Of a stretch of 64,000 nucleotides of DNA, positions 7,774 to 36,789 are shown in pieces. The DNA is taken from positions 1-64,000 of the forward strand of contig JAUVXW010000017.1 in the NCBI GenBank assembly GCA_030603385.1. Reading direction: 5' to 3'. Origin of the DNA: Promethearchaeota archaeon (GTDB lineage: Archaea > Asgardarchaeota > Lokiarchaeia > Sigyniarchaeales > SOKP01). A program made the position numbers and the translations under genes. Under the pieces are notes generated by a model. The model did no database searches. It saw nothing but the letters and a program-made list of their open reading frames with translations, and was not told the origin of the DNA. Position 1 is the stretch's first letter, and every line of letters begins with the position of its first letter.

Positions 7774-7826
7774 GTTAATTTTTTTATTTCTATACCACAA
7801 ATAATTTTGATTTTGGTGATTTTTGA

Positions 7827-8876
7827 ACGAGTGTTATTGTCGATAGCTATGCTTTTACTCTAATCAAAATTGGTTTTTTGAAACAATTAATAATGGATGA
7901 AATAACTCTAAAAAAGTTAGAAGATATCACCAATATAGAACAGTTAATTGAGTACATTGGAAGGTTTTACCCGGGATTAACCTTTGATTCTTTTACTATT
8001 GAAGAAATTGAGAGAGCATTATTTCATACTTATATAAAATTAATTGGAAGAATAATAGTGCATTCTCCAAGAACTATGCGTTCATTTCTTAGGAATTACC
8101 TTATGAAGTATGAAATAATGAATATTAAACGTATTATTTTAGGCACTATTCTTGGAATGAGTATAAACGATAAATCAAAACTGGTTAATAAACTCGTAGA
8201 AAAATACTTAAACAATACAGATTTCATAAACGGGCTTCTAGAAATTACATCTTTAGATCAAATTCAATTTTATATGAAAAATACTAAATATAATAAAGCC
8301 ATAAGAGAAGGAATTCTTTACTTTCGAAATACTAAAGAAATTTTTGTGTTAGAAGCCTTCCTAGATAGACTCTATTATGAAACTATGGAAAATGAAATAA
8401 AATTTCTAAATCTTAAAGAAAAAGTAATGATCTCTTTCTATGTGAATTATATATCTGAGATATATAATTTGAATATAATATATAGAGGTATTAAGATCAA
8501 TATTGACAGGAATTTACTTTCACAGTTCCTTGTTAACAATTATATGTTCTTGAATCAAGGATCTCTAAATGATCTATTAAATCTAACTAGTATTAATGAT
8601 TTCATCACACTTTTATCTGAATTTTTAATTAGAAAAAAGGAAATAAGACCCAATTTACTACGTTCTCCTCTTAAAGGAGAACATTTGATTTGGGAAATTG
8701 AAAAGCTATATTTGGATTACTTTTTTAGAACATTTCAAATAAAAATAGATGATATAGCATATCAATCAATTTTCAGGATTATGGAGTTGTTAATTAGAAA
8801 AGATAATGAAATTAAAATTCATGTATTACCTAGGGTTGTAGAGATTTTACATGAAAAATATAAGGTGTTAAAATAA
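7827..8876 (+). CDS. atpC: A/V-type ATPase subunit C (d); proposed ACG start at 7827 (ORF track TTG 7878)
   Basis: KYEIMNIKRII, LEAFLDRLYY and operon position. The frame is open upstream to TGA 7824 and encodes SVIVDSYAFTLIKIGFLK, matching the family N-terminal YA-x4-I helix. Confidence 0.85.
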   Translation, partial: TSVIVDSYAFTLIKIGFLKQLIMDEITLKKLEDITNIEQLIEYIGRFYPGLTFDSFTIEEIERALFHTYIKLIGRIIVHSPRTMRSFLRNYLMKYEIMNIKRIILGTILGMSINDKSKLVNKLVEKYLNNTDFINGLLEITSLDQIQFYMKNTKYNKAIREGILYFRNTKEIFVLEAFLDRLYYETMENEIKFLNLKEKVMISFYVNYISEIYNLNIIYRGIKINIDRNLLSQFLVNNYMFLNQGSLNDLLNLTSINDFITLLSEFLIRKKEIRPNLLRSPLKGEHLIWEIEKLYLDYFFRTFQIKIDDIAYQSIFRIMELLIRKDNEIKIHVLPRVVEILHEKYKVLK

Positions 8877-9187
8877 TGGATCTTTTTGAAAATTTAAAAG
8901 ACATTGAAAAGGTTTATGAAGATCTAGTAAATAATGCTAAGAATTTAAACTTAAAAGAAATTGAGAAATATAGAGATAATGAACAAAGGACATTTGAGAG
9001 ATTTATTATCGAGAAGAATGAGCTTGTAAATGAGGTATTGGGAACACTTGCTAAAGAAGTTAATACAAAAATTAATAATTTTGAAAATAAATTTGATGGA
9101 GCAATTAAAAAGATTGAGTTACATTTTCAAAAAAGTATTAGGAATCTACAGAAAATAATTATAGAAGAGGTAGGGCTAGATTTCTAA
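8876..9187 (+). CDS. atpH: A/V-type ATPase peripheral stalk subunit H/G
   Basis: 103-aa charged coiled coil (LKDIEK..E.LVNNAK) between subunits C and F, with overlapping stop/start codons. Confidence 0.7.
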   Translation: MDLFENLKDIEKVYEDLVNNAKNLNLKEIEKYRDNEQRTFERFIIEKNELVNEVLGTLAKEVNTKINNFENKFDGAIKKIELHFQKSIRNLQKIIIEEVGLDF

Positions 9188-9513
9188 TGTTCGATAAAGA
9201 AGTTCATATTGTTGGGGATGAAGATATTGTTTTAATGTTAGGACTTCTAGGAATAGAGGGTACAATAATTGAAAACCGAGAAGAATTCCTAAAAGTATTT
9301 AATAATTTGATAAATCTACCAAAAATAGGAATGATTCTTATAGCATTAAGGTTATCTAATGATATAATTGATTTTCTGTTAGATTTTAAACTAAATAACA
9401 AAGAACCATTTATATTTATTCTTCCTGATGTTTTTCAGCCAAATGTAGAAAGGTTAGATGTCCTTTTAAATAAAATCTCCAATGCAATTAGCGATATAGA
9501 GTTGTTAAAATGA
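9187..9513 (+). CDS. atpF: A/V-type ATPase subunit F
   Basis: HIVGDEDIVLMLGLLGI and PFIFILPD. Confidence 0.88.
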   Translation: MFDKEVHIVGDEDIVLMLGLLGIEGTIIENREEFLKVFNNLINLPKIGMILIALRLSNDIIDFLLDFKLNNKEPFIFILPDVFQPNVERLDVLLNKISNAISDIELLK

Positions 9514-9524
9514 GTTGAGTAAAA

Positions 9525-10253
9525 ATTTCTGAAGAAAAAGAGTTTAAAAAACAGCTAGGTAATTTAGGCCGTTATTTAATTGAGAAAGCCCAAAATGAAA
9601 TAAAGGAATTAAATCAAAAAACCCTTTTTCAAAAAGCTGAAATAAAAAAAAGGTTTTTAGAAAGGAGTGATGATAGAGAGATCAAATTGAAGCAACATTT
9701 TATAGATAGTTACTATCAATTTTTAAATCAGTCATTGTCTTTAACTCTACTGAATGGTAAAGAAAAATTTTTAAATATAAAAAATAATTTAATTAAAAAA
9801 TTAAATGCATCGTTATTTAAGCTCATAAGAGAAAAAATGGATAATAATTATGCTTCATATATAGACTATCTTTTAGATTCAATAAAAAATGTAAAGAAAA
9901 CCATAGACAGGCCCCAGGAGATAGAATTAATTTTTAACCATAAAGATTATAACTATTTTATTAAGAATTTTGATAAAATTGTAGATTTATTTAAGAATCC
10001 AATAGAAATTAATGAAGATAAAAGAGACTTCATAGGTGGATTTAAAGTTTCTCTAGTGGGGGGGGTAATATCTTACGATTATACAATTGACAATCTAATT
10101 AATAAAAATTCCTCCTTTATTCAGATGGAAATATCCAAAATCATAAATGACTCTGAAATTAAGGAGATTGAAATAGAATTTGAAGAATTTATTAAAAATC
10201 ATAAAAAATTAATTACAGAATACCTAACTCAGTATGATCAAATCCAAAACTAA
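9525..10253 (+). CDS. atpE: A/V-type ATPase subunit E; proposed ATT start at 9525 (ORF track TTG 9687)
   Basis: C-terminal DFIGGFKV...SYDYTIDNL. The frame is open from 9519 and encodes the N-terminal stalk helix SEEKEFKKQLGNLGRYLIEKAQNEIKEL. Confidence 0.82.
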   Translation: MSEEKEFKKQLGNLGRYLIEKAQNEIKELNQKTLFQKAEIKKRFLERSDDREIKLKQHFIDSYYQFLNQSLSLTLLNGKEKFLNIKNNLIKKLNASLFKLIREKMDNNYASYIDYLLDSIKNVKKTIDRPQEIELIFNHKDYNYFIKNFDKIVDLFKNPIEINEDKRDFIGGFKVSLVGGVISYDYTIDNLINKNSSFIQMEISKIINDSEIKEIEIEFEEFIKNHKKLITEYLTQYDQIQN

Positions 10254-12072
10254 CAACAATTCTCAGAAGGGGCATATTTCTGCAATAGTTGGTTCTTTAA
10301 TTAGAGTAAAAGGATTAGAGAATCAAATACGATTGCATGATTTGATTAAAGTTAGAAATATGTTGGGAGAAGTTATACAAATTTATTCAGATTATATTGT
10401 GGTACAATGCTTTGAAAATACTACTAATTTACGAATTAATGAAAAAGTTATAAATTTAAATGAACCCTTATCAATGGAGTTAGCACCAGGATTATTAGGA
10501 ACTATTTTTGATGGAATACAAAGACCGCTTCAAAAAGCTTTCGAAAAACATAAAAGTGGGCAATTAACAAGAGGATTAGAAATACCATCGCTGTCAAGAA
10601 CAAAAAAATGGCATTTTATTCCATTAGAAAGAACTAAAGGTAATGTAACAGGAGGAGATGTAATTGGGACTGTCCAAGAAACACAGGCTATACAACATAA
10701 AATAATGATTCCACCAAATATTAGTGGTAGGTTAACCTATCTTGCAAATGAAGGAGATTATACGATAGAACAAGAATTATACAGATTAGAGATAGGACAG
10801 GAAGTAAAATCTTTTTCAATGATGCAAAAATGGCCTATAACAACATCTAGACCATTTAAAGAAAGAATGCTACCTGGTGAACCGTTAATTACAGGGATAC
10901 GCGTTATAGATTTATTGTTTCCAATCACTAAAGGGGGCACTATTGGTGTTCCAGGAGGATTTGGAACTGGTAAGACAGTTATTCAACAGTCATTAGCTAA
11001 ATGGTGTGATGCAGATGTCTGCATTTTTGTGGCATGTGGTGAAAGAGGAAATGAGGTTGCTGATGTTTTAAAACAGTTTTCTGAAATTATTGATCCTAAA
11101 AGTGGTCAACCCTTATTAAATAGAATCGTTCTTATTGCTAATACTTCAAATATGCCCGTATCAGCACGAGAGGCAAGTATCTTTTCTGGAGTCACTATTG
11201 CTGAATATTATAGAGATATGGGGTATGATGTTGCTGTTCTCGCTGATAGTACTTCAAGATGGGCGGAATCTTTAAGAGAAATATCCGGACTATTGGAGGA
11301 AATGCCTGCTGAAGAAGGATACCCTGCGTATTTGCCTTCAAAACTTTCTGGTTTTTATGAACGAGCTGGTATTGTTAAACTTCTTGGGAATGAAGAGATA
11401 GGAAAAGAAAGAGTAGGATCTATAGCTATTATTGGTTCAATTAGTCCACCTGCTGGTGATTTTAGTGAACCTGTAACAGCAACCACCAAAAATTTTGTAC
11501 AAGGGATATGGGCTTTGGATGCGGGATTAGCATATTCAAAACATTATCCCGCTATAAACTGGTTAGATTCATATTCAAACTACCCTGATTATATCTCTGA
11601 ATGGTGGTACGAGAGAGATATAAACTGGTCAGAAATTGATGTTGACTGGTTTGATTGTCGTAATCAAGTCAATGAAATTTTATCTCAAGACAATGAATTA
11701 AAATATATTACCCAACTAATTGGTGAAGAAAATTTACCAGATGACCAACAATTAACTTTATTTATTGCCAAACTAATTAAAAATGGATTTTTAATTCAAA
11801 ATGCCTATGATGATATTGATAATTTTACAGATGTCCGAAAACTCTTAGGTATGATTAAAGTTATTCTTTTATTGTTTAAAGAAAGTAAAGAATTATTAAA
11901 ACAAGGATTTCTAATCGAAGATATAAAATCACTCTTAGTTATTAATGATATTTTAAGAATAAATAGAACAATTTCTAATGATGATTTTGATAAAATTGAG
12001 GGTATTAAAAGAAAATTACTCAGTGATATAGAGTCTTTAAAACTAACCCAAGGAGTATTAAAAAAAAGATGA
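10234..12072 (+). CDS. atpA: A/V-type ATPase catalytic subunit A (copy 1)
   Basis: P-loop [49 protein letters not shown]. Confidence 0.97.
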
Positions 12073-13460
12073 GCGTTATTTACAGAAAAATTCAACAAAT
12101 AATTGGACCACTTATATTTCTTAAAAACGAGCATAATGCCCAATTTGGCGAGATAGTTATAATTAGAACAGATGATGAAAAAATTCGCATGGGGCAAATT
12201 ATAAAAATGAGTGAAGAAATTATAGTGGTAGAAGTATTTGAAGATACTGCTGGATTATCTACCGAGAATGCTGAAATTATTTTCACAGAAGATACATTCA
12301 AAGTAAAAATATCAAAAGATATGTTCGGTCAAACATTTAATTCTTTAGGAAAACCAATTGATATTAAAACAAAAGCAGTATTAGATTCAGATCTTTTATC
12401 AGATGTTCAAAGAGATATAAGTGGAGTTCCTATTAATCCATTTGCAAGAGAATATCCTGTAGACATAATTCAAACTGGAATATCAGTAATTGATGGATTA
12501 TTTACATTAATTAGGGGTCAAAAACTCCCGATATTTAGTGGACAAGGATTACCTCACAATAAATTAGCTGCCCAAATTGCTACACAAGCAAAAGTATTAG
12601 GAGAGGAACCATTCGTAATAATCTTTTGTGGTATAGGCATCATTCATGACGAGGCAATTTATTTTTTAAATCGTTTTCAAGAAAGTGGATCTATTCAAAA
12701 TATAATTTCTTTTATAAATTTTGCAGATGACCCGATAATCGAAAGGTTAATTATCCCAAGAGTTGCTTTAACAACAGCAGAATATTTTGCGTTTGAAAAA
12801 GATATGCACGTTCTTGTCATATTGATAGACATGACTAACTATGCTGAAGCTTTAAGAGAACTCAGTTCAGCAAAAGAAGAAATCCCTAGTAGAAAAGGAT
12901 ATCCGGGATATATTTATTCCGATTTTGCTTCAATTTATGAGAGGACAGGAAAAATTAAAGGAAAAAAGGGCACAATAACTCAAATCCCGATTCTTACTAT
13001 GCCATCAGATGATATATCACACCCAATTAGCGACACTACCGGTTATATAACTGAGGGGCAATTAGTACTTAGCCGTGGTCTACATAAAAAAGGCATTTAT
13101 CCTCCATTTGAAGTATTAGCCTCCATTTCACGATTAATGAAAGATGCTATAGGTAAAGAAAAAACAAGAGAAGATCATGCTGATGTTAGCTCACAATTAT
13201 TATCAGCATATTCAAATTATCTCGAAGTTAAAGATCTTATTTCAATCGTTGGAGAAGATGGCTTAAGTTATGAACAGAAGAATTTTTTAAAATTTGGAGT
13301 AGACTTTGAACAAAAATTTTTAAATCAAAAAGTAAATGAAAATCGTGATTTTGAAACTACACTTAATTTAGCTTGGGAAGTGCTTTCAAATTTAAATACA
13401 GATCAATTATTTAGAATTCATCAAAGATTTTTAGATAAATATTATAAAACCAAGGTGTAA
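12069..13460 (+). CDS. atpB: A/V-type ATPase subunit B
   Basis: [34 protein letters not shown] and the Arg finger SISRLM. Confidence 0.96.
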
Positions 13461-13463
13461 GTT

Positions 13464-14111
13464 ATCAGTTTTCGTGCTATAAAACCCACAAAATCAAATT
13501 TGATAGGATTACAAAAGAGATTAGTTTTTGCTGTTAGAGGAGAAACTTTTTTAGAATATAGACGAGAACAATTAGTCTTTCAAATTAAACGATTATGGAA
13601 AGAATATTTAGAAATAAGAAGCAATTTTATTGCTTTATTTAAACAATCACTTATAAAATTAAATCAAACTTATGAAGAAATGGGTAAAAACGGGGTTATT
13701 TTAATTAGTAAATTAAGCAGAATTCAATATAGACCTATGGTAGACATACAATATCAAAAGAAAGCAGGAATTGTTGTTCCCCGCATTAATTTTGAATTAT
13801 TTCAAGAGGAAAAACTGCCTGCTTATACATTTGAGGGTACAAGTCATTTTCTTGATGATTTAATTATCTTATTGAAAGGATTTTTTAAAGCAACGATTGA
13901 ATTTTCTGAAATTGAAGATTTAATATTGAAACATGCTATTAGCTTTAAAAAGGTAAATCGTAGGATAAATGGACTAAAAAATATGATTATTCCAAAATTA
14001 AGGATGAATATAAAACAAATTAGAGAAATTTTGGAAGAAATTGAGAGAGAAAACTATGTAAGACTGAAAAAAACTAAAGATTTAATTTTAAGTAAAGAAA
14101 AAACCATATGA
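13464..14111 (+). CDS. atpD: A/V-type ATPase subunit D; proposed ATC start at 13464 (ORF track TTG 13500)
   Basis: RRINGLKNMIIP and LEEIERENYVRLK. The conserved N-terminal KPTK..L lies upstream of the TTG. Confidence 0.9.
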   Translation: MSFRAIKPTKSNLIGLQKRLVFAVRGETFLEYRREQLVFQIKRLWKEYLEIRSNFIALFKQSLIKLNQTYEEMGKNGVILISKLSRIQYRPMVDIQYQKKAGIVVPRINFELFQEEKLPAYTFEGTSHFLDDLIILLKGFFKATIEFSEIEDLILKHAISFKKVNRRINGLKNMIIPKLRMNIKQIREILEEIERENYVRLKKTKDLILSKEKTI

Positions 14112-14123
14112 GCATGATAAAAA

Positions 14124-16418
14124 ATGGTCAAAAGAAATGAATTTAGTTTAATAAAAGCAGAAATAAACCACAATTATAAAGATCAATTCCTAATTGAACT
14201 CTCAAATCTAAATGTAGTCCATATAAAACCAAGAGAAGAAAGCAAAATTAAGGAAGAATTAGAAGAGAAACATCCTCTAAAGGAAAAAATTAAAGATTTA
14301 AGGAAAAATTTAAACAATTTATATAGAAAGCTCGAAATAAGTGAGCTTGATGTTTTAGAGTTAAAAATTGCTAAGGATGATAGAATAGAGTTTACTGCTA
14401 GAGATTTACCAGAATTAATTACCCATATTGTAGAAGAAATCGATTTTTATACAAATCGAGTAGCTGAGTTAAATAGTTATATTGCTAAAGGTATAATAGA
14501 ATTAGAAAATCTAAAGTTAATCAAAATTTGCTATAGGCGTATAGAAAAATTAAATCTGAATGCAGAAAAAATAGATAATTTGAAGCAATTTAAATTTCGA
14601 ATCTTAACAACTTTTAGTAAAAACTTAACTAATTTAAAAAATCTATTTGAACCCTCAGAATTTCCTAGTTTTTATGAAACCTTTGAGATTTCTGATGATC
14701 GAATTGGCTTCTATATTATTTATCCAAAAGATAAGGAGAATGAGTTTAATGCGAGGATTCGATTAATACATTCTGAGGAAGTTCTAGTACTTAAAAGATA
14801 TTTGACAAAAGAAGGAATAAATTTTCTAAGAATAATTAAAGAAATAAATTTTATTGAAAATCTGGTTTCACGATATAAAAAAGAACAAACTCGAATAGCA
14901 AAAGATAATATGGGAAGGTTCGCAGGGATTAATGAGGTTGTGCAAAATATTGAGGAATATAATTGGGCGGAGCATCAATTTGAAAGCACAGTATCTAATC
15001 GTTTAAGTTTTAAGTTCTTTCTTCCCTCACGGAAAAAAGAGGAGGTTGTTCAAAGTTTATTTACAATTTTTAAAGACAATATTACAATTCAATCAATCGA
15101 TATCTCAAAAAAACACACCATTAAAGAGTCTTTTACCTCAAAAAAAGGAAAAATAAAAAAATACAAACAAGAACCAACACTAAAAGAAGATTATCTCAAA
15201 CAAAATGAAACTAGTGAAATGCATAAAGAAGAAGATTTAAGAGAATCTTCTCCAACAATAATGAAAAACTTCTTTTTGATACGTCCATTCGAAGCAATCA
15301 CCAGATTATATGGCACACCAACTTATTCTGAAATTGATCCTACTCCGGTTATTGCTTTTACTTTTCCAATATTATTTGGTTTAATGTTTGGTGATATAGG
15401 TCATGGGATAATTTTAATAATCGCGGGATTAATAGGAGGATTAGTGTTTAGGAAACGGGGAGGAGACACTGCCAATTTTTCATGGATTATCTTTTTCTGT
15501 GGATGGGCTGCATTTTTTACCGGATTTTTATACGGAGAATTTTTGGGACATCATGAGATAGAAATATTTGGAAATGTATTATGGGATTTTGAAGAAAATC
15601 CAATCATAATTCCGATTATAGGATCTTTAAATAATCCATTGGAAAATATAATGAGTGTATTTACTTTTGCGATATATATTGGTGTGTTTCATATTAATTT
15701 GGGATGGTTTATTCAATTTCTGAATTATTGGAAACAAAAAAGAAAATATTTGGGATTTAGTGATTCTTTGATGAAAATTCTATTGTTGATTGGAGGAACT
15801 ATTTTAATTTTTGGATTTGGATTCGATATTTATGGATGGTTATCCCCCCCTTATCCAATTTTGTTAACTTTAATTCCAGGTGTTTTATTATTACTACTTA
15901 AACCTCTCGGAAAAATCTTTAAAATTTCATATCTACAAGAAGAATCTTTTGGAGGTTTATTGGGTGAAGGTTCAATTGAAGCCTTTGATACTGTTTTATC
16001 AGTTGTGACTAATGTAGCCTCATATACTAGGTTATTAGCTTTAGCACTCGCTCATATCGCACTTCTCACATCTATCAATGCAATGACAGGATTAATTGAA
16101 GGGGAAGGTATAGGAGTAGATATTATAAATTTAATTGGTGTGATTTTCGGTAATATGATTGTTATTTTACTCGAAGGCTTATTAGTGTTCATTAACACTA
16201 TCAGATTACATTTTTATGAGTTTTTCTTTAAATTCTACCAGGGTTCAGGAATTGATTATTTTCCATTTTATTTAGACAATGATTACTCTATACTAAAATT
16301 TAGGGCTGAAGCTGAGAAAGACATCATTTCAGAGGAAATTGAGAAAGAGATTGATACACAATTAGTAAAAGAAGAAATAGATAAAGCTATAAGTTATATC
16401 TCAAAGAAATTTGCATAA
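14124..16418 (+). CDS. atpI: A/V-type ATPase subunit I (a)
   Basis: YGTPTYSEIDPT, FGLMFGDIGHG, essential Arg in SYTRLLAL, RLHFYEFF. Confidence 0.95.
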   Translation: MVKRNEFSLIKAEINHNYKDQFLIELSNLNVVHIKPREESKIKEELEEKHPLKEKIKDLRKNLNNLYRKLEISELDVLELKIAKDDRIEFTARDLPELITHIVEEIDFYTNRVAELNSYIAKGIIELENLKLIKICYRRIEKLNLNAEKIDNLKQFKFRILTTFSKNLTNLKNLFEPSEFPSFYETFEISDDRIGFYIIYPKDKENEFNARIRLIHSEEVLVLKRYLTKEGINFLRIIKEINFIENLVSRYKKEQTRIAKDNMGRFAGINEVVQNIEEYNWAEHQFESTVSNRLSFKFFLPSRKKEEVVQSLFTIFKDNITIQSIDISKKHTIKESFTSKKGKIKKYKQEPTLKEDYLKQNETSEMHKEEDLRESSPTIMKNFFLIRPFEAITRLYGTPTYSEIDPTPVIAFTFPILFGLMFGDIGHGIILIIAGLIGGLVFRKRGGDTANFSWIIFFCGWAAFFTGFLYGEFLGHHEIEIFGNVLWDFEENPIIIPIIGSLNNPLENIMSVFTFAIYIGVFHINLGWFIQFLNYWKQKRKYLGFSDSLMKILLLIGGTILIFGFGFDIYGWLSPPYPILLTLIPGVLLLLLKPLGKIFKISYLQEESFGGLLGEGSIEAFDTVLSVVTNVASYTRLLALALAHIALLTSINAMTGLIEGEGIGVDIINLIGVIFGNMIVILLEGLLVFINTIRLHFYEFFFKFYQGSGIDYFPFYLDNDYSILKFRAEAEKDIISEEIEKEIDTQLVKEEIDKAISYISKKFA

Positions 16419-16455
16419 ATTAATGATTAATTAATTAACCGAATTATGATAAATT

Positions 16456-16893: not shown

Positions 16894-16917
16894 TATCAAT
16901 TGAGGATTTTATAAAAC

Positions 16918-18720: not shown

Positions 18721-18746
18721 AATACTTTATATATTTTTCAATAAAT

Positions 18747-22507: not shown

Positions 22508-22522
22508 AATAGGTGGATTTTC

Positions 22523-23113
22523 ATACATATAAACTTGCATTTTGGTATTGGAATAATTATTGCTTCTATTTCTAAATACTTTTTGGATCTGAACTTTATG
22601 GAATTTTTCATAATAGTATTATTTGCATTTGTGTGTGATTTTGACATATTTTTATGTAAGTTCGCATTAGACAACAATCATAGAATGTTGATTACTCATT
22701 CAATTATCCCTGGAATAATTATCACAATTTTAGGATTAATCTTTAATTGGACTGTTCTGATAATTAGTGGTCTTACTTACTCAATTCATATTATCATTGA
22801 CACTTTTGACTGGGGTACCAACTTCTTTTATTTTCAAAAAAAACAAGTAGGTCTTAAATTATTAATTACAAAAGACGAGTTTAACAATATTTCTAAATAT
22901 CTATCTCAATTTAAGAGACCAGAATCCTTTTTTGATAAAAAATATTATGGTAATGTCACTTGTTTAATAACAGAAGTACTGATTTTCATTCTAATGATAT
23001 TACTCATTACACTTTTTGCGTTAAAGTACTTCTTAATTATTACAATTTATTTCATCTTTCTTGTGTTCCATTTACAACGTCATTTCATTTTGAAAAAAAT
23101 TGAATCAAACTAA
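22523..23113 (+). CDS. Membrane-bound metal-dependent hydrolase (YdjM-like); proposed ATA start at 22523 (ORF track TTG 22535)
   Basis: N-terminal H, DFD, HRMLITHS and HIIID motifs in a multi-TM protein. Confidence 0.7.
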   Translation: MHINLHFGIGIIIASISKYFLDLNFMEFFIIVLFAFVCDFDIFLCKFALDNNHRMLITHSIIPGIIITILGLIFNWTVLIISGLTYSIHIIIDTFDWGTNFFYFQKKQVGLKLLITKDEFNNISKYLSQFKRPESFFDKKYYGNVTCLITEVLIFILMILLITLFALKYFLIITIYFIFLVFHLQRHFILKKIESN

Positions 23114-23209
23114 TTGGAAATTTATTAAATTCTTATTATATAATAAAAAATAAACATTAATTTTTTCTATTGCAATTTATTCATTTCTAGCTAAATGTAG
23201 GTGATTATT

Positions 23210-23677
23210 ATTTCAAATGATATTAAAACAAAAGTTGGGATTAAATTGGACGAATCCGAATCTCAGATGATATTTAAATGCGATTTAGGGAATTTGAAGG
23301 TTAAGGATTGTTATATTGATGAAGAACATCGTGAAGAAGTTGACATGCTTGGTCCTAATCCCTCACGATTATTAGCTTTAGGTGTTTTAGGATGCTTAAG
23401 TGCAAGCTTTATCTTTTGCATAAAAAAGAGGAATTTTAAAGTGGATGATTTTACAGCTGAAGCGGAGGTTGTTATCACTCGAAATGAGAAAGGTTTTTGG
23501 AGAATTAAAAAGATTGATGTTAATATACTGCCAAAAATAACAGATCCTGACACTCTCAAAAGGGCAAAACAATGCTTAAAATCTGCAAAAGATGGTGTAA
23601 GTTTTTTCGAACAATATTGTATTGTTACACAATCAGTAAGATCTGGAATTGAAGTAAATGTAAATCTTGATCTATAA
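23210..23677 (+). CDS. OsmC/Ohr-like protein (paralog 1); proposed ATT start at 23210 (ORF track GTG 23201)
   Basis: GPNPSRLLALGVLGCL...YCIVTQS, with two conserved Cys. Confidence 0.85.
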   Translation: MSNDIKTKVGIKLDESESQMIFKCDLGNLKVKDCYIDEEHREEVDMLGPNPSRLLALGVLGCLSASFIFCIKKRNFKVDDFTAEAEVVITRNEKGFWRIKKIDVNILPKITDPDTLKRAKQCLKSAKDGVSFFEQYCIVTQSVRSGIEVNVNLDL

Positions 23678-23724: not shown

Positions 23725-24162
23725 ATGTCAAACGTGTTAAAGACTAAAGTTGGTTTAAAACAAGAAGAAGAAATGATTTTTAGATGTGATCTTGGAAACC
23801 TTAAAATGGATAATCTATATATTGATGAAAAAAATATAAAAGAAAATGAAAAAATAGGGACTTCCCCTACTAAATTATTAGCATTATCTGTTCTAGGTTG
23901 TTTAGCTGCAAGTTTTTCATTTTGTCTTCAAAAGAAAAATTTTTCATTATCGGGATTAGAAGGAAAAGCTGAAGTTACAATCGCTAGAAATGACAAAGGA
24001 TTCTGGAGAGTTAAGAAGATTGATGTAGAAATGAACCCTAAAATTGATACTCCTGAAATGCGTAAAAGAGCAGATCAATGTAGAAAGTTTTTCGAGCAAT
24101 ATTGTATTATCTCAGAATCTTTAAGAACTGGATTCGAAGTGAGTGTCAATCTAAATTATTGA
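23725..24162 (+). CDS. OsmC/Ohr-like protein (paralog 2)
   Basis: GTSPTKLLALSVLGCL...YCIISESL; tandem duplicate of the previous gene. Confidence 0.87.
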   Translation: MSNVLKTKVGLKQEEEMIFRCDLGNLKMDNLYIDEKNIKENEKIGTSPTKLLALSVLGCLAASFSFCLQKKNFSLSGLEGKAEVTIARNDKGFWRVKKIDVEMNPKIDTPEMRKRADQCRKFFEQYCIISESLRTGFEVSVNLNY

Positions 24163-25209: not shown

Positions 25210-25306
25210 TATTGAATATAAAGAATTATTACTATTTGAATTCCTCATAAAGTATTATTATATTATGAAATAAATATAAAAAATAATAATAAAAAGTATA
25301 TAGAAA

Positions 25307-25975: not shown

Positions 25976-26129
25976 GATTTTATCATTTTTTTTTTGATCT
26001 TAAGTTATTATTATATTATTATATAATTAGTTCTATTTTTTTTAAATTTTTAATTCTATTTGTAGAAAAATTATCAGAAAAATCAATGAATAAATTGAAT
26101 TAGCTCCATATTATATTCTCAATTAAAAA

Positions 26130-27518: not shown

Positions 27519-27710
27519 TTAAAATTACTTCTTTGAATTTACGATTAACTTTCAATTGGAAATTGTATATTATACCTTACTTGACAAGAATATATAACTT
27601 TACCGATTTTTAAAAATTATCGTTTTCTTTTTAGTATATAAGATATGAAAAATTATAGACAAACAACAAATTCTCGGTAATTAAATTAAAACTAGGAAAA
27701 ATAAGGAATT

Positions 27711-29429: not shown

Positions 29430-29450
29430 GAATTCTCATATTTTAAGATA

Positions 29451-31046
29451 TCAGGGTTCCTTTTTTCTGAAATAATCTATGTTGATCTCTTGAAAACATG
29501 AGTCAATTGATTCAATTTCTTCTAACTCTCTCAATGCGATTCTATTTTTATCATCAAAGTCTTTTGCAGCCCATATCAACTTAAGAAATCTTTGGTGATG
29601 ATGATGAAATCTCTGATTGGCATACTCTTTTGCTTGTTCAGTATAAAGAAGGAATGGCCAATCGCTACCTTCCATTAATAGTAATTCTCTAGCAATCTGG
29701 TTTAATATTCTTTTTTCCCAATTATTTGGATTCGGAATAATGTCCAAAACATCTTCAAATTCTTTAATTGAGCCACTTATATATGGCCATATCCAGCCAT
29801 GTTCTGGATTTTTCCACACTTCGAAGTGCCCTCCCATTCCCCAACTACTTTCCTTCAATTTAATTATCGAAAATTTGTCTTTATATCGAGATACGTAATC
29901 TGAAATAGAAGTCAATTCCACTTCTTCATTAATATTAATCAACTCAATAACTCTATTCAACCAATCAATACCCTCCGCGAACCAATGACCGAACAATTCA
30001 AAATCAAATGGGGAAATTACTATTCCTTTTTCATGATACTTCTCTGAAAAAGCTTGAACCTCAGTTTCTAAAATATTCACAAAATTGTTTACTTGAGATT
30101 CAACTACTTCTTTTGCCTTAACAATATTATAGAGTTGCTTATTATTTCCTTCAATGTTTTTACCAGTAATCCTCCAATAATGCAAACCAGATTCAAAATC
30201 TTTTATATGAAATTCTCTATAATATTCATTACCAGGATATCCAATTTTAGCATCCCAAATTTGTCTACTTGTGTTTTTGTTTCGTCCGAAAACTGAAACA
30301 CCAGTTTCTAAATTATAACCAAATTTTGTAGTTAAGCCTAAATCATTTTTTTGCCCAATAATTTCTGCATCAAGGATTCCATGGGAATCCACAAAAAAAT
30401 ATTCTATACCAGAATTATTTAACCAGTAATCAATACTCTCTCTAAATTTACCTTTCTTGTATTCTTTGGGCCGGTAAGCGCATTCGGGAAGCCAAATACC
30501 TTTAGGTTCACTACTAAAATGTTTTTTATGAGTATCTACAGCTAATTGAATTTGAGAAAATATTCCGGAATCACTTTCAAAAAGTGGTAAAAAACCGTGT
30601 GTTGCTCCGCATGTTATTAATTCAATCATTCCTTCATCTTGGAGCCATTTGAAGCTTCCTAAAATATCTGAATAGAAATTGTGATAAAAGGTATCTAATA
30701 CGTATTCAAAATTTTTTAAGTGAAAGGCAGCTATTGCTCTTCTTTGGGGGTGGTTTTCAAACCGTTTAATATCTTTTTGTGCTCGTGAAATTAGATTTTC
30801 CATATATTCTGAAAATTGTTGTTTCATATACTCATCTGCTAATTGTTCAGCCAATATTGGAGTCATATCTATAGTTATAGCTGTTTTTATTCCTTTTTCT
30901 TTAAGATCTCTCAAAACATTCAATAAAGGGATATAAGTCTCATTCATAGCTTCAAATAGCCATTCTTCTCCTGCAGGCCATCTTCCCGATCTTTTACACC
31001 ATGGAATATGCCCATGTAGAATTAAACCAAAATATCCAAGAGTCAT
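29451..31046 (-). CDS. GH57 branching-enzyme-like protein, second paralog
   Basis: HGHIP, ETYIPL, WLPECAY, PFDFELFGHWFAEG, EGSDWPF. Confidence 0.9.
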   Translation of the reverse strand: MTLGYFGLILHGHIPWCKRSGRWPAGEEWLFEAMNETYIPLLNVLRDLKEKGIKTAITIDMTPILAEQLADEYMKQQFSEYMENLISRAQKDIKRFENHPQRRAIAAFHLKNFEYVLDTFYHNFYSDILGSFKWLQDEGMIELITCGATHGFLPLFESDSGIFSQIQLAVDTHKKHFSSEPKGIWLPECAYRPKEYKKGKFRESIDYWLNNSGIEYFFVDSHGILDAEIIGQKNDLGLTTKFGYNLETGVSVFGRNKNTSRQIWDAKIGYPGNEYYREFHIKDFESGLHYWRITGKNIEGNNKQLYNIVKAKEVVESQVNNFVNILETEVQAFSEKYHEKGIVISPFDFELFGHWFAEGIDWLNRVIELININEEVELTSISDYVSRYKDKFSIIKLKESSWGMGGHFEVWKNPEHGWIWPYISGSIKEFEDVLDIIPNPNNWEKRILNQIARELLLMEGSDWPFLLYTEQAKEYANQRFHHHHQRFLKLIWAAKDFDDKNRIALRELEEIESIDSCFQEINIDYFRKKEP

Positions 31047-31129
31047 GGTTAAGAAATAATTATTATTAGAACTTTTTTATTATATTTGTAGTGTATTATT
31101 TTCGAGTTTTTAAAATTAATAGTTTATAT

Positions 31130-31807
31130 CTACTTTTTCTTCTTATTAGTCCTTCTTTCTAATATTCTATGTGAAAAATTCTCGAATTTTAAAAGAAAGT
31201 TATCTAAATCATTTTTTTTCATTCGTTCTCTTATAGTACAAAAACCAGAGCACAACCCCCAGTTGAACGGAGTTTCACATTTATAGCAAGAGCCTAGAAT
31301 ACCATAGGCATGATATATATTTAATACTATTATTATAACATAAAAAGTAATAAATGCTGTTCCTATATTTACACTTTTAGAGTAAGAGCGTCCCATTATC
31401 CAATTAAATAATAAGGCTGCTCCTAAACCTATAAGAAATTTTTGAATAATTTTCACTGCTTTATTTTTAGTAAGATTTAATGGGCTAAAGAAAAAAGTCC
31501 CTAAAAAGATCATGCTTAAAACAAAAAAAAAATCAGAATTGAAGAGTTCATTTTTATTAAAAATTCTAAGAAGGAGAAGTGTAATAATAGCTGTCGGATA
31601 ACCAATGAAACATCCTATACATAACTTTATTTTCCCACATTTTAGTGTATGCCCTTTGAAATTTTCACATTCTGGATGATGACTTAGAAAAAAAGGGATG
31701 AAACTTTTTCCATATAGTAAAGATTTTCTCAATCTGCTCTGCTTTTTCTTAGTACTACTAATTGAACTTATATTCTCTATTGGTTTATCATTATGGTTAT
31801 GGCTTAT
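31130..31807 (-). CDS. Membrane protein with His/Cys motifs (DUF2085-like); proposed ATA start at 31807 (ORF track TTG 31732)
   Basis: SHHPEC...GH...LCIGC, four TM segments, CYKC...CSGFC. Confidence 0.65.
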   Translation of the reverse strand: MSHNHNDKPIENISSISSTKKKQSRLRKSLLYGKSFIPFFLSHHPECENFKGHTLKCGKIKLCIGCFIGYPTAIITLLLLRIFNKNELFNSDFFFVLSMIFLGTFFFSPLNLTKNKAVKIIQKFLIGLGAALLFNWIMGRSYSKSVNIGTAFITFYVIIIVLNIYHAYGILGSCYKCETPFNWGLCSGFCTIRERMKKNDLDNFLLKFENFSHRILERRTNKKKK

Positions 31808-31918
31808 TTATTTCACCCTCAATTCTACACTTTTTAAAAAGAAATAATGTATTTCATAAACCTTAGAAAAAATATTTCATTGTCTTTGAGTATCTAATAA
31901 TTCTTGAAATTAAATATC

Positions 31919-32326
31919 CTACCAATAAGGGGTCCACGCAAACCATGATACAACCCAGAACATCATCATGAAGAAGCAAACAAAGTCTATAACACCTAAA
32001 ACTAACCCTAACACTGCCATTCCAGTATTTTCGTCTTTACTTAATCCAAGCGCTCCCAATATTATTGCTACTATTCCAAAAATAATTCCACCACAAAATA
32101 AACCAAGAATTCCACATACCAAAGCTGCTGTACCATAATTTTTTTCTCCCCCCCTAGAGTACGACCTTTGATAAAGACGTGTTTGATATTGTGGTGGTGG
32201 TGGTTGCGGTTGTGCCACCGGTCGAGGCTGAGGCACATTTACTTCTTTACGAACTTTGCCACATTTAGGACATGCATTCCAAGATTCTTCAATTTCCCCT
32301 CCGCATTCCATACAGTATGGTGACAT
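31919..32326 (-). CDS. Zinc-ribbon + Pro/Gln linker + DUF4190-like membrane protein
   Basis: CMEC...CPKC, PQPRPVAQPQPPPPQY, AALVCGILG...GMAVLGLVLG; start ATG 32326. Confidence 0.75.
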   Translation of the reverse strand: MSPYCMECGGEIEESWNACPKCGKVRKEVNVPQPRPVAQPQPPPPQYQTRLYQRSYSRGGEKNYGTAALVCGILGLFCGGIIFGIVAIILGALGLSKDENTGMAVLGLVLGVIDFVCFFMMMFWVVSWFAWTPYW

Positions 32327-32463
32327 GATATTATTTAATAATCTCAATAATATAAGTATTTCATTTTTCTATAATTTAAAGAGAAATATTTGTACGCAAT
32401 CTTTTAATGCTCTTGTAATAGATTAATAGTATTTAAACTCGCTTTGAAACAAAACAAGGAATA

Positions 32464-33615
32464 TTATATATTTGTACCCAGCTCTAAAGTTTGGTCTCTA
32501 ATTTGGGAGTTATTGCTAATTTTACAATTTGGAGCAACTATAGCCCTTTCTAAAACGACATTGTCACCAATTTCACAATCATTACAGATTATACTTTCTG
32601 TAATAATACAACCTGCTCCAATCTTTATATTATCCCATATGACGCTTTTTTCAATCATAGTATCTTCCCCAATAATGACATTTTGTCCTATAGAGGAGAG
32701 TTCCTTTATTTTCACCCGATTTTCTAATTGAACAAATTCTCCAAAACAAGCTGGTTTATCGATTATTATATTTTGTCCAGCATTAATAACACCCATTACA
32801 TAAACTCCGTCATATTCTACACCATTAGGCAAAATCGGCCATGCATGTTTTCGAAGCAAGTCCCAATTTAACCATAGATATGTAGTAGAATTTCCAGCGT
32901 CCATCCAGTAATAATTTCTGACAAATCCATATAAATCATACTGGTTTTCAAGGAGATAAGGAAAAACTTCACTCCCAAAATCCATTAACTCTGTTTCCTG
33001 AAGAATATTACCTATATCCTTATTAAAACAATAAATTCCTGTATTTATTATATTAGTGTGAAGAAAGAGATCAGCCCTTTGGGCCATACTTGACACATAT
33101 AATTCCATAGGTGCGGGTTTTTCTAAAAAGAGATAAATTTTACGATTCTTATCTAAGAGTACTACTCCATATTGAGAAGTGTGACTTTCAACTGTTTTCA
33201 TTGAAATTGTGGCTAATCCTTTTTTTTCTGAGTGAAAAGTCATAAAATCTTTCATTGGAAGGTTTGTGACAATATCTGCCATACTGACAACAACTTTTTC
33301 AGAATCAATACGATCTGTTAATAATCGATACGCCTCAGCTGTACCTTTGCTATCTTGTATTTCACATTCTAATTCGACATCTCCTAATTTATCAGGAGTC
33401 CAGGTTTTTTCTATATACTTCTTTAGAGTTTCTCCTTGATATGCTAAAGCAAGTACGATATGCTTTATATCTGCATATACTAAATGTGCAATAGCATAAT
33501 CAACCATAGGAACATTAGTAACTTTTACCAAAGGTTTTGGAATTAGAGAGGTCAAAGGCATTAATCTTTTACCCTTACCGCCAGCCAGGATTATTGCAGA
33601 CCATTCACGTGTCAT
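32464..33615 (-). CDS. NDP-sugar pyrophosphorylase (sugar-1-phosphate nucleotidyltransferase with a left-handed beta-helix)
   Basis: ILAGGKGKRLMPLT..IPKPL, FLEKP, YWMDAG and C-terminal hexapeptide repeats. Confidence 0.9.
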   Translation of the reverse strand: MTREWSAIILAGGKGKRLMPLTSLIPKPLVKVTNVPMVDYAIAHLVYADIKHIVLALAYQGETLKKYIEKTWTPDKLGDVELECEIQDSKGTAEAYRLLTDRIDSEKVVVSMADIVTNLPMKDFMTFHSEKKGLATISMKTVESHTSQYGVVLLDKNRKIYLFLEKPAPMELYVSSMAQRADLFLHTNIINTGIYCFNKDIGNILQETELMDFGSEVFPYLLENQYDLYGFVRNYYWMDAGNSTTYLWLNWDLLRKHAWPILPNGVEYDGVYVMGVINAGQNIIIDKPACFGEFVQLENRVKIKELSSIGQNVIIGEDTMIEKSVIWDNIKIGAGCIITESIICNDCEIGDNVVLERAIVAPNCKISNNSQIRDQTLELGTNI

Positions 33616-33906
33616 TTTAAGCTAATTTTTAACTTGAGAAAGAAAAAACATGAATTCATCAAGAAAACACATTATATATAACATATTCAATAGATATAAA
33701 TCTAATTTTATTTGATATAAAAAAGTTATTAATTCGTCAATTTATATTGAATTACTACTATAATATATGAAAGATTTCAGGTTTAAATCTGTGATAATTT
33801 CTTTATTAATATAAAGACTAATATTAAGACTTTGTTATTCGACACCTTTTAAACTTAAAATTAGGTAAAATTAAAATAAATTTTAGAAATAATTTTCTAT
33901 AAAATT

Positions 33907-35085
33907 TCAAGAAATATTCTCATCTGGAAGTCTTGCACCAAATCTGCGTTTTAGCAAAAAAATCGTGATCCCTATGGCAACAACAGAAATTATGATAACA
34001 CTTGATATAATGAGAATAAAATTGTCTTGACGATCTTTTACTATGGTAACGGTTATTCCATCTGATCCTCCAATTAAATCAGTATAAGAATATCCTGGGG
34101 ATGCATGAGGAAAGGTAGACCCTGAAACAAATCCCCTAGCATTAATCGATATGAAACCTTGGGTATCTAGCGTTTTAGCAACTATTCGCCATTGAACTGT
34201 TTCAGTATCTCCACTTTGTAATTCTCCAATAGGTAGACTTTTTGAAGGGTTTTCTTCCGGGGAAAGTGAAAACCCCGGGGGTAATTGTATGGTTGCATTA
34301 CATGTTGAAGCGGTGTAATAATTATAATCGAAATAAGTTGGACACACATATTCAACGTTAGCGGATAGTGTGAATGTTGAGTTAACCACAACAGAGGAAG
34401 GAGAAGTGATTGAGATATCCCATGGGTGGATAAACAATCCCCAATTTCCAGAATATGCCCATAAATCCATAAAAGTAGCATAATTTATTCTATTATATCC
34501 TTGAATCAGAGGATCGCGTGTAATTAAATTATTAATAATACTACCATCCCTGTTATATCCTATAACAACTCTAAAGTGCCCACCTGAATGACTTTCATCA
34601 TACCATTGTAAAACAATAATTGGATAACCAGCATCTATTAAATTTATTAAGCCTGTAGCTGATGTGAAGTAATTCTCGAATGTACCATATCCAATTTTTC
34701 TATTAATATAACCTGTTATATTGCTAACCATTTCATCGCCTACAGATGTACTTAAATTGCTGAAATGAGTTGCACGCCGCATATCATCAGTAAAAGTCGA
34801 TTTACTTATAAAATCAGTTCTAGCAGCATCTGCAATCTCATATTGCGAAATATCAGGTCCGAAATAATCGAAAACCATCTCTAAACAAGCTGGACCGCAA
34901 TAATAGTTTTTAATTTGAGAATAGTAGGGAACCGATGGGATTATTACATCATTTGCTGCTAACCTTAAATCTGAGTTAATATCATCAAATACACAAGATC
35001 CAGTTTCTGTTCGACTTTTGTTATGAATAAAAGGTCCTATTATTATTATTACTATGAAGACACTAATTTTTAATCTCTTTTTCAT
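33907..35085 (-). CDS. Secreted, membrane-anchored C39-like cysteine peptidase
   Basis: N-terminal signal, VPYYSQ...YCGPAC, GHFRVVIGY, RDP, an Ig-like region, and a C-terminal TM followed by KRR. Confidence 0.8.
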   Translation of the reverse strand: MKKRLKISVFIVIIIIGPFIHNKSRTETGSCVFDDINSDLRLAANDVIIPSVPYYSQIKNYYCGPACLEMVFDYFGPDISQYEIADAARTDFISKSTFTDDMRRATHFSNLSTSVGDEMVSNITGYINRKIGYGTFENYFTSATGLINLIDAGYPIIVLQWYDESHSGGHFRVVIGYNRDGSIINNLITRDPLIQGYNRINYATFMDLWAYSGNWGLFIHPWDISITSPSSVVVNSTFTLSANVEYVCPTYFDYNYYTASTCNATIQLPPGFSLSPEENPSKSLPIGELQSGDTETVQWRIVAKTLDTQGFISINARGFVSGSTFPHASPGYSYTDLIGGSDGITVTIVKDRQDNFILIISSVIIISVVAIGITIFLLKRRFGARLPDENIS

Positions 35086-35253
35086 TTGGATTTACTTCTC
35101 TCTAATTAATAACTTTCAATCATTAAAACTCCAACTTTAACATTGAGGTAGAGATAAATAAGAAATTTCATTATTTAATAATTTATTTTTTATGAATAAT
35201 TTTTACAGCAATAATCACAAAATTCAATCAATGAAGGTATTGTATAATTATTT

Positions 35254-36531
35254 TTATTGAAGATACTTTTTTAATGTTTCTCTTATTTCTTTTGCTGCGA
35301 TATGAGGTAATTTTCTTGCTACACGCATATCATCTGCCATTTCAGCACCACCAATTGTCTCATGGGGAATAATATCCGCAAACAAATGAAAATTAGCATC
35401 ATAACCATATGGACAACAATTAAATAAGATATTTCGGTTTTTATCAATTTCTATATCATCTAATGCTTGAAAAATTACTTTCAAAGAATATGCTAATTCT
35501 TCAATTTGATTAATCTTCAACTGGGAAAATCGTCTTAGGTGCTCATTTGGATGGAATCTAATATGGTAATTCCTTACTGGACTACCAGTGTTATAAAAGG
35601 TCCAGAATTCAGATTTCAGAATTATTCTATCTGTATCTCCGTGTGTTGTTTGGCAAAGATGGCAATTATCCCCCATTTCCTTGAATGCTTCAAGATATCC
35701 TTCTAATCGACTACCATGACCGTCCATATTTAAATCTATATAAGTCTGACTATGAATACGAGGTTGAGAACCACCGGCCTTCCTTCCTATGTTAAAAAAT
35801 GGCATTACTGGGATATCATAATAGTCCTTATCAATAGCTTCTTCAATACAATAAAGGATAGCAGCTTTCATAGAAAGGAAAATTCCGGATAAAGCCTCCT
35901 CAGGGATTAAATTAAAACATAAAGAAGGGTAAAAATGTCTTGAGATTGTTACTAAATTGATTCCTCTGGAAAGCTTCAAATGAGAAGGTAAATTATCTTT
36001 TACATACTTTTCGATATCGGGATCTACTATTCGTGCCATTGAAGGATACCTGTTAATTAAAGTGAGCGCTTTATTAGCCTCTGGTATCCTTTCAATCCGA
36101 TGTGGTTTCTCTGAAAAAGGCTTGTCTCTCCTAATTTCATCCTGAGTAATTATCATCGTATATACATCACCAATTGGTATTCCCCCATCGTCATATACTT
36201 GTTTTCCTTCTATAACAGAAGAAAATACGTCCTTATGTTTTTTTAAAATTTCCTTTGAACAATCAAAGAATTCTTTTTCTTCTTCTATTGTCTTGAAACC
36301 TTTAGGTCTTTCACCCCGAATTGGAGATATATAAGAATAATGACCATAATATCTTGTTCGCCCACTTCGAACACCAAAATCCTCTGAAGTAATCTTTACT
36401 GTAGAAAGTGGATCCCATCGTTTAATTGGAACTTCATAAATATCCTTAAAATTCTCTGTGTTGATTATACCCCACTCCATGAATTTTGGTTTGTATTCTT
36501 CACTATCAGAGCCTTCTTTTTTATCAGAAAT
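35254..36531 (-). CDS. GalT/HIT-superfamily nucleotidyltransferase-like protein; proposed ATT start at 36531 (ORF track ATG 36480)
   Basis: RWDPL, RGERP, NRYPS, FFNIGRKAGGSQPRIHSQ, CHLC, GGAE. Confidence 0.78.
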   Translation of the reverse strand: MSDKKEGSDSEEYKPKFMEWGIINTENFKDIYEVPIKRWDPLSTVKITSEDFGVRSGRTRYYGHYSYISPIRGERPKGFKTIEEEKEFFDCSKEILKKHKDVFSSVIEGKQVYDDGGIPIGDVYTMIITQDEIRRDKPFSEKPHRIERIPEANKALTLINRYPSMARIVDPDIEKYVKDNLPSHLKLSRGINLVTISRHFYPSLCFNLIPEEALSGIFLSMKAAILYCIEEAIDKDYYDIPVMPFFNIGRKAGGSQPRIHSQTYIDLNMDGHGSRLEGYLEAFKEMGDNCHLCQTTHGDTDRIILKSEFWTFYNTGSPVRNYHIRFHPNEHLRRFSQLKINQIEELAYSLKVIFQALDDIEIDKNRNILFNCCPYGYDANFHLFADIIPHETIGGAEMADDMRVARKLPHIAAKEIRETLKKYLQ

Positions 36532-36789
36532 GAAAATTACCTCCTTTTTTGATTCAAATTGAATTTTTTCTTAGAGATCAATAATATTATGTAATTTATT
36601 TCATACTTAAATAACTAATTACTCATGGTAACAATTATTTTCTCATAACTATATCTTGCTTTCGCAATATTAAAAAGCTAGGCAGAGAAGTTTCAAACTT
36701 AAACTGAACTGTTATATTAATGAAGTAAAACTAAAAAAAAGAAAATGAGGAAAGGTTGGTTCCTTCTAACCTAAAAATCCATTTAAATA

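Follow-up and report, generated by a model that had tools for sequence, protein, structure and literature searches.

Archaea are described as initiating translation at AUG, GUG, or UUG (PMC7531240, PMC4705826), and in Lokiarchaea Shine–Dalgarno (SD) motifs are described as rare (PMC12993045). The stretch of lokiarchaeial DNA analyzed here (the window; 64,000 nt) raises the question of whether some genes of this lineage start at other codons, positioned by an SD. Comparative sequence data make it very probable that, throughout the host's family, a small percentage of ordinary genes (those of three ATP synthase subunits among them) start with ATT, ATA, ATC, or ACG behind a strong SD.

Candidate near-cognate start sites in the window

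A sequence-only reading had proposed seven such sites, and every motif, spacer, and codon is present where it was placed. Three belong to ATP synthase genes on the plus strand. The gene of A/V-type ATP synthase subunit C (atpC, 7827–8876; 349 amino acids from ACG; PF01992, TIGR02923) carries the SD core GGTG (7815–7818) with an 8-nt spacer to ACG 7827. The gene of subunit E (atpE, 9525–10253; 242 amino acids from ATT) follows an imperfect SD, GAGTTGA (9512–9518), that overlaps the atpF stop codon (GAGTTG-7-ATT), and the gene of subunit D (atpD, 13464–14111; 215 amino acids from ATC; PF01813) follows AGGTG at the end of atpB (13453–13457; AGGTG-6-ATC). On the same strand, AGGTG (22511–22515) stands 7 nt before the ATA of a membrane protein gene (22523–23113; the 22523 gene), and another AGGTG (23199–23203), which contains an in-frame GTG at 23201, stands 6 nt before the ATT of an OsmC-like gene (osmC-1, 23210–23677; PF02566). 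The two minus-strand sites are that of an uncharacterized membrane protein (31130–31807; the 31807 gene), where GAGGGTG (31814–31820) is followed after 6 nt by ATA with a stop codon directly before it, and that of a conserved uncharacterized protein (35254–36531; 425 amino acids from ATT; the 36531 gene), with GGAGGT (36539–36544) and a 7-nt spacer. The spacing is like that of a canonical start, as had been claimed: the subunit H/G gene (8876–9187, plus strand) begins with AGGTG-8-ATG. The names first given to subunits C, D, and E and to OsmC are borne out by profile matches (weakly for E; NF003049, E-value 8e-4), whereas the label "YdjM-like" for the 22523 gene is not, its only match being DUF6122 (E-value 0.016).

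In the above order, an in-frame stop codon lies 0, 2, 1, 5, 3, 0, and 13 codons upstream of the sites, that of atpC being a TGA immediately 5′ of the ACG. With osmC-1 set apart, the first canonical start downstream lies 17, 54, 12, 4, 25, and 17 codons away; in osmC-1, the GTG within the SD is 3 codons upstream of the ATT. Serine is the second codon at six of the seven sites, as had been noted.

Conservation of the sites among orthologues

If these codons are starts, ATG should exchange with ATT, ATA, ATC, or ACG at one orthologous position, and orthologue columns drawn from the host's Lokiarchaeia family contain this exchange. The near-cognate codon occupies the position of the orthologues' ATG at six of the seven sites, with weak correspondence for the 31807 gene. 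At the atpC site, 37 of 42 orthologues have ACG (36 of these 37 with an SD) and four have ATG. All 37 threonine codons there are ACG, although ACG makes up 8.5 per cent of threonine codons; the preceding codon takes 17 values, and the serine codon that follows alternates between AGT and AGC. Seventeen of 120 database homologues of atpC begin with Met-Ser at the ACG position. The 39 atpE orthologues include 29 with ATT, three with ATA, and one each with ATC, TTG, and ATG. The atpD column is the most mixed (54 orthologues: ATT 20, ATA 16, ATG 7, ATC 4, GCG 3, TTA 2, ACG 1), and an SD precedes 40 of its 41 near-cognate codons; from residue 6 onward, the atpD protein can be aligned to the N-terminal end of V-ATPase D subunits of solved structure.

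The SD coupling is sharpest in the 22523 column, where none of the 22 orthologues with ATG and all 12 with ATA, ATC, or ATT have an SD, one further orthologue having TTG (Fisher's exact test for 12/12 vs 0/22; P = 2e-9, which is overstated, as kin are not independent). In the OsmC column, ATT (11), ATA (1), and ATC (1) are all accompanied by an SD, one orthologue has ATG, and six gave no codon call. Counted by eye, about 23 of 29 orthologues of the 36531 gene have ATT, ATC, or ATA behind GAGGT, GGTG, or GTGG, and two or three have ATG. Homologues of the 31807 gene, the weakest case of the seven, have variable N-termini, and one shares the SD-stop-ATT-Ser layout. On these comparisons, the assignment of six sites as starts is well supported, and that of the 31807 site is only likely.

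Genome-wide enrichment and share of genes

The predicted enrichment of near-cognate codons behind SD motifs is found genome-wide. An SD of at least 5 nt at 6–8-nt spacing (strong SD) precedes ATT, ATA, or ATC (ATH) in 126 of 4786 cases, 2.4 times the background (P = 3e-15). The ATH excess is about 69 in this class and about 0 in the 4-nt SD class, which still shows an excess of ATG (256) and TTG (52), and genome-wide controls with wrong spacing or a reversed motif showed no enrichment. The near-cognate state thus goes with a strong SD, which supports the proposal that start-codon selection is relaxed and compensated by SD pairing. The serine excess also extends genome-wide (24 per cent after SD-led ATH and 23 per cent after SD-led ATG, vs 7 per cent after internal ATH codons). 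Two relatives show matching ATH enrichment (3.2 and 2.8 times), and it is absent (0.8 times in both) from ribosomal-protein regions of other Asgard archaea and from non-Asgard ATPase loci (retrieved by a related-locus search with atpA), control sets whose base composition differs from that of the host genome.

Near-cognate starts would account for at least 2.5 per cent of all genes (lower bound 2.5–3 per cent) and probably for 3–10 per cent, about 10 per cent being a noisy upper bound. An expectation–maximization (EM) model over 61 codons assigned about 12 per cent to ATH, CTG, and ACG together, a share to be read only as an upper bound because AAA (3.6 per cent) and TTT (2.1 per cent) also scored; the model missed atpC and atpD. 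Unfiltered pairwise tests were set aside as contaminated by antisense shadow ORFs. In a manual count of ribosomal-protein genes that leaves out several anchor artefacts and frameshifts, about 15 of 331 copies in the family, and 0 of 35 in the sister family (a small sample), are without a canonical start.

The expectation that gene callers truncate a sizeable share of proteins holds for the kind of error but not for its extent: N-termini are truncated or misplaced (61 of 120 database homologues of atpC are shorter than 340 amino acids, and many of the remainder begin within the SD, some public atpC calls using its GTG), and the share is only a few per cent. ATH leads about a quarter of strong-SD genes; with roughly that fraction of strong-SD starts missed by standard callers, SD use is undercounted and database N-termini are wrong.

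Alternative explanations

The best-surviving alternative, which we consider improbable, is that the true starts are canonical, at a downstream TTG or ATG or at the GTG inside GGTG, and that the upstream isoleucine and threonine codons are untranslated or internal. The GTG at 23201, the TTG four codons into the 22523 gene, the poorly conserved N-terminus of the 31807 gene, and the public atpC calls would all fit; in the first three genes, a canonical codon is nearby, so their N-termini are not strictly out of its reach. However, in atpC, atpD, and atpE, where a stop codon lies 0–2 codons upstream, the N-terminal segment that had been said to separate it from the first ATG, GTG, or TTG is present and conserved over 12–54 residues, and no canonical start reaches it. 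Moreover, the frame of the GTG differs among orthologues, that of the near-cognate codon being constant (in several OsmC orthologues, a stop codon separates the two), and ATG-bearing orthologues begin exactly at the near-cognate position.

RNA editing that restores AUG (C-to-U at ACG, A-to-I at AUA), leaving initiation canonical, is slightly less probable still. C-to-U editing at ACG occurs in plant organelles, and the invariant ACG of atpC is what editing would require. Yet deamination cannot turn ATT or ATC, which form the commonest class, into AUG; the single atpD column mixes ATT, ATA, ATC, ACG, and ATG; and dependence on a strong SD would not be expected from editing.

Stop-codon read-through or frameshifting from an upstream gene or mini-ORF is very improbable. 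In the host genome, the TAA of atpB shares the reading frame of atpD and precedes the ATC by 3 nt, and the imperfect SD of atpE can also be read as part of an in-frame ATG-AGT-TGA from 9510. But in 15 of 49 orthologue pairs atpD does not share the frame of atpB, and the gap between them varies; the ATG before atpE is absent from most orthologues; double stops occur; and a TGA that belongs to the SD will fall in frame wherever it stands 6 nt upstream. Errors of sequencing or assembly, or gene decay, are conceivable in a metagenome assembly with 7 per cent contamination but are effectively refuted by orthologue conservation: dozens of assemblies obtained independently carry identical codons in genes that are essential and intact.

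Initiation machinery and proposed mechanism

Genes for aIF1, aIF2-beta, 16S rRNA, and the initiator tRNA were not found in the host assembly, nor did ARAGORN find any tRNA-Met in the host genome, and the machinery was therefore read from relatives. There, aIF1, aIF2-beta, and 16S lie close together, and the absence of all three from the host points to an assembly gap. The 16S tail of relatives (GAUCACCUCCU) is normal and complementary to the SD, the 16S motifs at 790, 926, 966, 1338, 1400, and 1492 are ordinary, and the exact initiator anticodon arm (GGGCTCATAACCC; the arm alone was read) is present in 10 family genomes. An altered initiator tRNA or decoding centre was accordingly rejected as a cause. 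So was loss of aIF1, which is present in 15 of 18 genus mates and 47 of 55 family genomes with its loop 1 (RKWGR) intact.

The aIF1 gene has no in-frame ATG, GTG, or TTG start in any of 78 family loci (ATT in 75, ATC in three), which recalls IF3 autoregulation. In vitro, the aIF1 of Sulfolobus selects against AUU (PMC4705826). Against a contribution of substitutions in the family's aIF1, the sister family, with none of its 35 sampled ribosomal-protein starts non-canonical, has them too, and in a study of P. abyssi an aIF1 with C62S, a swap also seen here, served as a working reporter.

We consider it very likely that the ordinary machinery initiates these genes at near-cognate codons behind strong SDs and that this tolerance is a family-wide trait; that initiation occurs at these codons, with Met as first residue, is marginally more secure. 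A strong SD (GGTGA or GAGGTG) would pair with the intact 16S tail and position the 30S subunit, placing the codon 6–8 nt past GGTG in the P site, where the normal initiator tRNA (CAU) would tolerate one mismatch (AUU, AUA, AUC, ACG, or CUG); the protein would begin with Met, often followed by Ser. As a counterpoint, the GCG and TTA of five atpD orthologues are two mismatches from ATG and fall outside this one-mismatch model.

Because inspection of the machinery revealed no fidelity-breaking change in the 16S motifs or initiator arm, the cause of the relaxation and any tuning of expression can only be inferred. The tolerance may stem from a low aIF1 set-point maintained by the AUU start of the factor's gene, which follows an imperfect SD, possibly aided by substitutions in aIF1, a cause to which we give somewhat less than an even chance. 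With similar reserve, weak codons may set low output, for example of C, D, and E, the ATP synthase subunits present in one or two copies; ATG is retained by subunits A and B and by the ring subunit. More doubtful is an extended start-codon code, in which aIF1 would hold itself low via AUU and graded codons (AUG, UUG, GUG, AUH, ACG, perhaps UUA and GCG) behind strong SDs would represent selected, gene-specific output. If it were true, ACG, for instance, would be fixed in atpC as an output setting, and eIF1-controlled near-cognate initiation would have an archaeal equivalent within the group nearest to eukaryotes.

Comparison with known systems

We found no report of such near-cognate starts in Asgard archaea in the literature searched, mainly open-access papers. 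SD-led AUU starts are known from bacterial infC, in IF3 autoregulation, and from Enterococcus ebpA (PMC4705826; PMC4447247). As in infC, the fidelity factor's own gene starts at AUU here, although the factor is aIF1, a homologue of eIF1, and not IF3. Bacterial AUU starts are also confined to single genes, whereas the number of genes with AUU, AUA, AUC, ACG, or CUG starts here ranges from tens to a few hundred per genome. Across 36 prokaryote groups, one AUG-to-AUU switch was counted among 61,358 ancestral AUG starts (PMC5622118). In prokaryotic GUG and UUG starts, as here, the weaker codon goes with the stronger SD (PMC5622118); here, however, codon position 2 or 3 rather than 1 carries the mismatch, and dependence on the SD is stricter, the 4-nt SD class showing no ATH excess.

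Eukaryotic near-cognate initiation shares ACG, AUU, AUA, and CUG with the starts described here, and the autoregulation of eIF1, in which the homologous factor restrains its own production by way of a poor start, parallels what we propose for aIF1 (PMC4705826, PMC3105428). Eukaryotes, however, position the codon by scanning and Kozak context and not by an SD, and the eIF1 start is an AUG in poor context, whereas near-cognate codons here would be the main starts of housekeeping genes. Animal mitochondria likewise use AUA, AUU, and AUC routinely to start core genes (PMC11775629), but their mRNAs are leaderless and their system is reduced, whereas the genome here is archaeal, 3.9 Mb in size, and has a normal anti-SD and non-AUG starts that require an SD. 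Among the prokaryotes nearest to eukaryotes, the family is a natural system in which the setting of start-codon stringency by aIF1/eIF1 can be tested.

Probable start codons at the seven sites

The host assembly G000 spans 3.89 Mb (30.8 per cent GC, 94 per cent complete), and the nearest relatives of its ATP synthase region are Promethearchaeota/Lokiarchaeia assemblies. The sequence-only reading had proposed Shine-Dalgarno (SD)-guided initiation at ACG, ATT, ATC, or ATA in at least seven genes of the window. The motif-spacer-codon layout that it described for these sites, and for a control at 8876, matches the sequence exactly, and the second codon is Ser at six of the seven. Profile searches back the names subunit C, subunit D, and OsmC, agree weakly with subunit E, and lend no support to the name YdjM for the gene at 22523. 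The ATP synthase operon reads ring subunit (ATG), C (ACG, 7827), H/G (ATG), F (ATG), E (ATT, 9525), A (ATG), B (ATG), D (ATC, 13464), and I (ATG).

In the atpC start column, ACG occupies 37 of 42 orthologues and ATG four. ACG is the sole Thr codon there, though it makes up 8.5 per cent of Thr codons, and the adjoining codons vary. An M-S N-terminus begins at this site in 17 of 120 database homologues, and 61 of the 120 are shortened, bearing out the predicted truncation by gene callers. The atpE column holds ATT (29), ATA (3), ATC (1), TTG (1), and ATG (1), mostly behind a mismatched SD of the form GAGxTGA. The interchange expected for atpD is also present (ATT 20, ATA 16, ATG 7, ATC 4, GCG 3, TTA 2, ACG 1), and 40 of the 41 near-cognate orthologues have an SD; the N-terminal segment of subunit D, which a TTG start would remove, aligns to solved D subunits. 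Five atpD orthologues (L137-L139, L163, and L175) carry GCG or TTA after GGTG, two mismatches from ATG, and may start at that column or at a nearby ATT, ATA, or TTG. It is very improbable that canonical codons, downstream or alternative, are the true starts, as these fail for subunits C, D, and E and do not keep their place from one orthologue to the next. RNA editing to AUG, a shade less probable still, leaves the ATT and ATC starts beyond explanation, a ground that does not extend to ACG. Read-through from the upstream gene is less credible again: in 15 of 49 orthologue pairs, atpB and atpD do not share a reading frame. Sequence error is excluded by orthologue conservation.

The gene at 22523 is, by sequence comparison, the cleanest test of coupling between start codon and SD: 22 orthologues have ATG, none with an SD (0/22), and 12 have ATA, ATC, or ATT, all with one (12/12), these kin not being independent. 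For OsmC-1 (23210), all 13 near-cognate orthologues that could be resolved pair ATT, ATA, or ATC with an SD, ATG occurs once, and a stop separates the in-frame GTG from the start in some. This gene (23210-23677, plus strand; ATT, strong SD) and its tandem OsmC-like paralogue (23725-24162, plus strand; ATG) are 58 per cent identical, and most genus mates have the pair. On the minus strand, about 23 of 29 orthologues of the gene starting at 36531 carry ATT, ATA, or ATC behind a GAGGT, GGTG, or GTGG motif. Its 425-aa product (35254-36531) is found in 58 of 70 genomes, with 63-84 per cent identity over most of the family and about 51 per cent in one genus; Pfam and NCBIfam searches were blank except for a faint HIT match (residues 302-385, E = 0.12). 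N-termini differ among homologues of the minus-strand gene at 31807, for which a near-cognate start is likely.

Genome-wide association with SD motifs

In every long reading frame, we scored each in-frame codon, as far as the first ATG, for an SD in front of it, either strong (at least five contiguous matches, 6-8 nt spacing) or weaker (4 nt). In the host genome, strong SDs are enriched before ATG (7.5-fold), TTG (7.7-fold), GTG (3.0-fold), and CTG (4.3-fold). As the sequence-only reading would predict, ATT/ATA/ATC are also enriched, 2.4-fold (126/4786; P = 3e-15); AAG/AGG stand at 1.0-fold. The ATT/ATA/ATC signal is absent at the wrong spacing and with a reversed motif. The excess counts are 183 ATG, 62 TTG, 8 GTG, 74 ATT/ATA/ATC, 5 CTG, and 2 ACG, and therefore about 24 per cent of strong-SD starts are non-canonical. 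With the 4-nt SD, the excess is still large for ATG (256) and TTG (52) and zero for ATT/ATA/ATC, indicating that the non-canonical class requires a strong SD. Ser is the next codon in 24 per cent of SD-preceded ATT/ATA/ATC, 23 per cent of SD-preceded ATG, and 7 per cent of internal Ile codons. The same SD test gives a signal in two relatives and across pooled family regions; it gives none in loci from other Asgard groups or from outside Asgard, controls that differ in base composition.

About 70 further strong-SD ATT/ATA/ATC candidates occur in G000, including an L7Ae-like N-terminus on contig C24. TTG starts (~10 per cent) are far commoner than GTG starts (~2 per cent). ARAGORN returned a total of only 22 tRNAs, with two tRNA-SeC candidates and one intron-containing CUA 'tRNA-Pyl' candidate (contigs C34, C41, and C27) among its calls.

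Prevalence

The SD excess places the non-canonical share at no less than 2.5 per cent of genes, and a filtered pairwise test gave 7-9 clear cases among ~297 genes outside the window (~3 per cent). An unconstrained EM model allows up to ~12 per cent, with visible noise. By our count, about 15 of 331 ribosomal-protein copies in the clusters of 19 family genomes have non-canonical starts (uS14, uL22, uS8, uL6, uL15, eS4, and uL14). The corresponding figures are 0 of 35 for the sister family and 2-3 of ~310 for the remaining Asgard families. The uS14 gene of the C51 cluster in G000 reads GGTG-7-ATT-CCA, and six other family genomes have ATT or ATA. We take the share to be 3-10 per cent of genes and the trait to lie at family level. 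Judged from sequence, the family-wide habit of near-cognate starts is real and strongly supported.

Initiation machinery and aIF1

The fidelity factor aIF1 was not found in the host assembly, nor were the 16S gene and aIF2-beta; 15 of 18 genus mates have aIF1. Since the 16S gene lies 10-15 kb from aIF1 in relatives, an assembly gap is the likely cause. In relatives, the 16S tail, P-site motifs, and initiator anticodon arm (exact) show no change.

No ATG, GTG, or TTG occurs upstream of the zinc knuckle in any of 78 family aIF1 loci; the putative start, six codons before the first Cys, is ATT in 75 and ATC in three. A nearly invariant AGGTTGTGA lies 9-17 nt upstream of the ATT (loci L458-L537) and is possibly part of an aIF1 control element. 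Its two T's are unpaired with the 16S tail, yet fixed in 78/78 and 76/78, and it can also be read as an in-frame UUG-UGA start-stop. The protein keeps loop 1 and differs from solved archaeal aIF1 by Leu-to-Ala, Cys-to-Ser, and Gly-to-Phe. Other archaeal aIF1 genes sampled mostly start with ATG, some with TTG (sister family, Methanomethylicales), and in a few Asgard groups with an apparent ATA or CTG after an SD (Baldrarchaeia L359, L361, L363, and L370; other Asgard L109 and L432); weak aIF1 starts may thus extend beyond the family. Given that AUU is rejected in vitro by Sulfolobus aIF1, and that poor starts serve IF3 and eIF1 to curb their own production (PMC4705826), an aIF1 feedback loop in the family would be a reasonable inference.

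Mechanism and comparison with known systems

In the best model, the SD would anchor the ribosome at a near-cognate codon, the normal initiator tRNA would be used with one P-site mismatch, and aIF1 discrimination would be lowered. Such initiation would resemble the infC type, which works in the same way at AUU, and the family habit would extend the known SD compensation of GUG and UUG starts (PMC5622118). AUG-to-AUU switches among prokaryotes number 1 in 61,358 (PMC5622118), reviews list only AUG, GUG, and UUG as archaeal starts (PMC7531240, PMC4705826), and SDs are described as rare in Lokiarchaea (PMC12993045). Our literature search, which covered mainly open-access papers, returned no report of a near-cognate start trait in Asgard archaea. 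New elements of this analysis are a threshold in SD strength, the coupling of SD and start codon at 22523 (22 versus 12), the controls from other lineages, and the count over 78 aIF1 loci.
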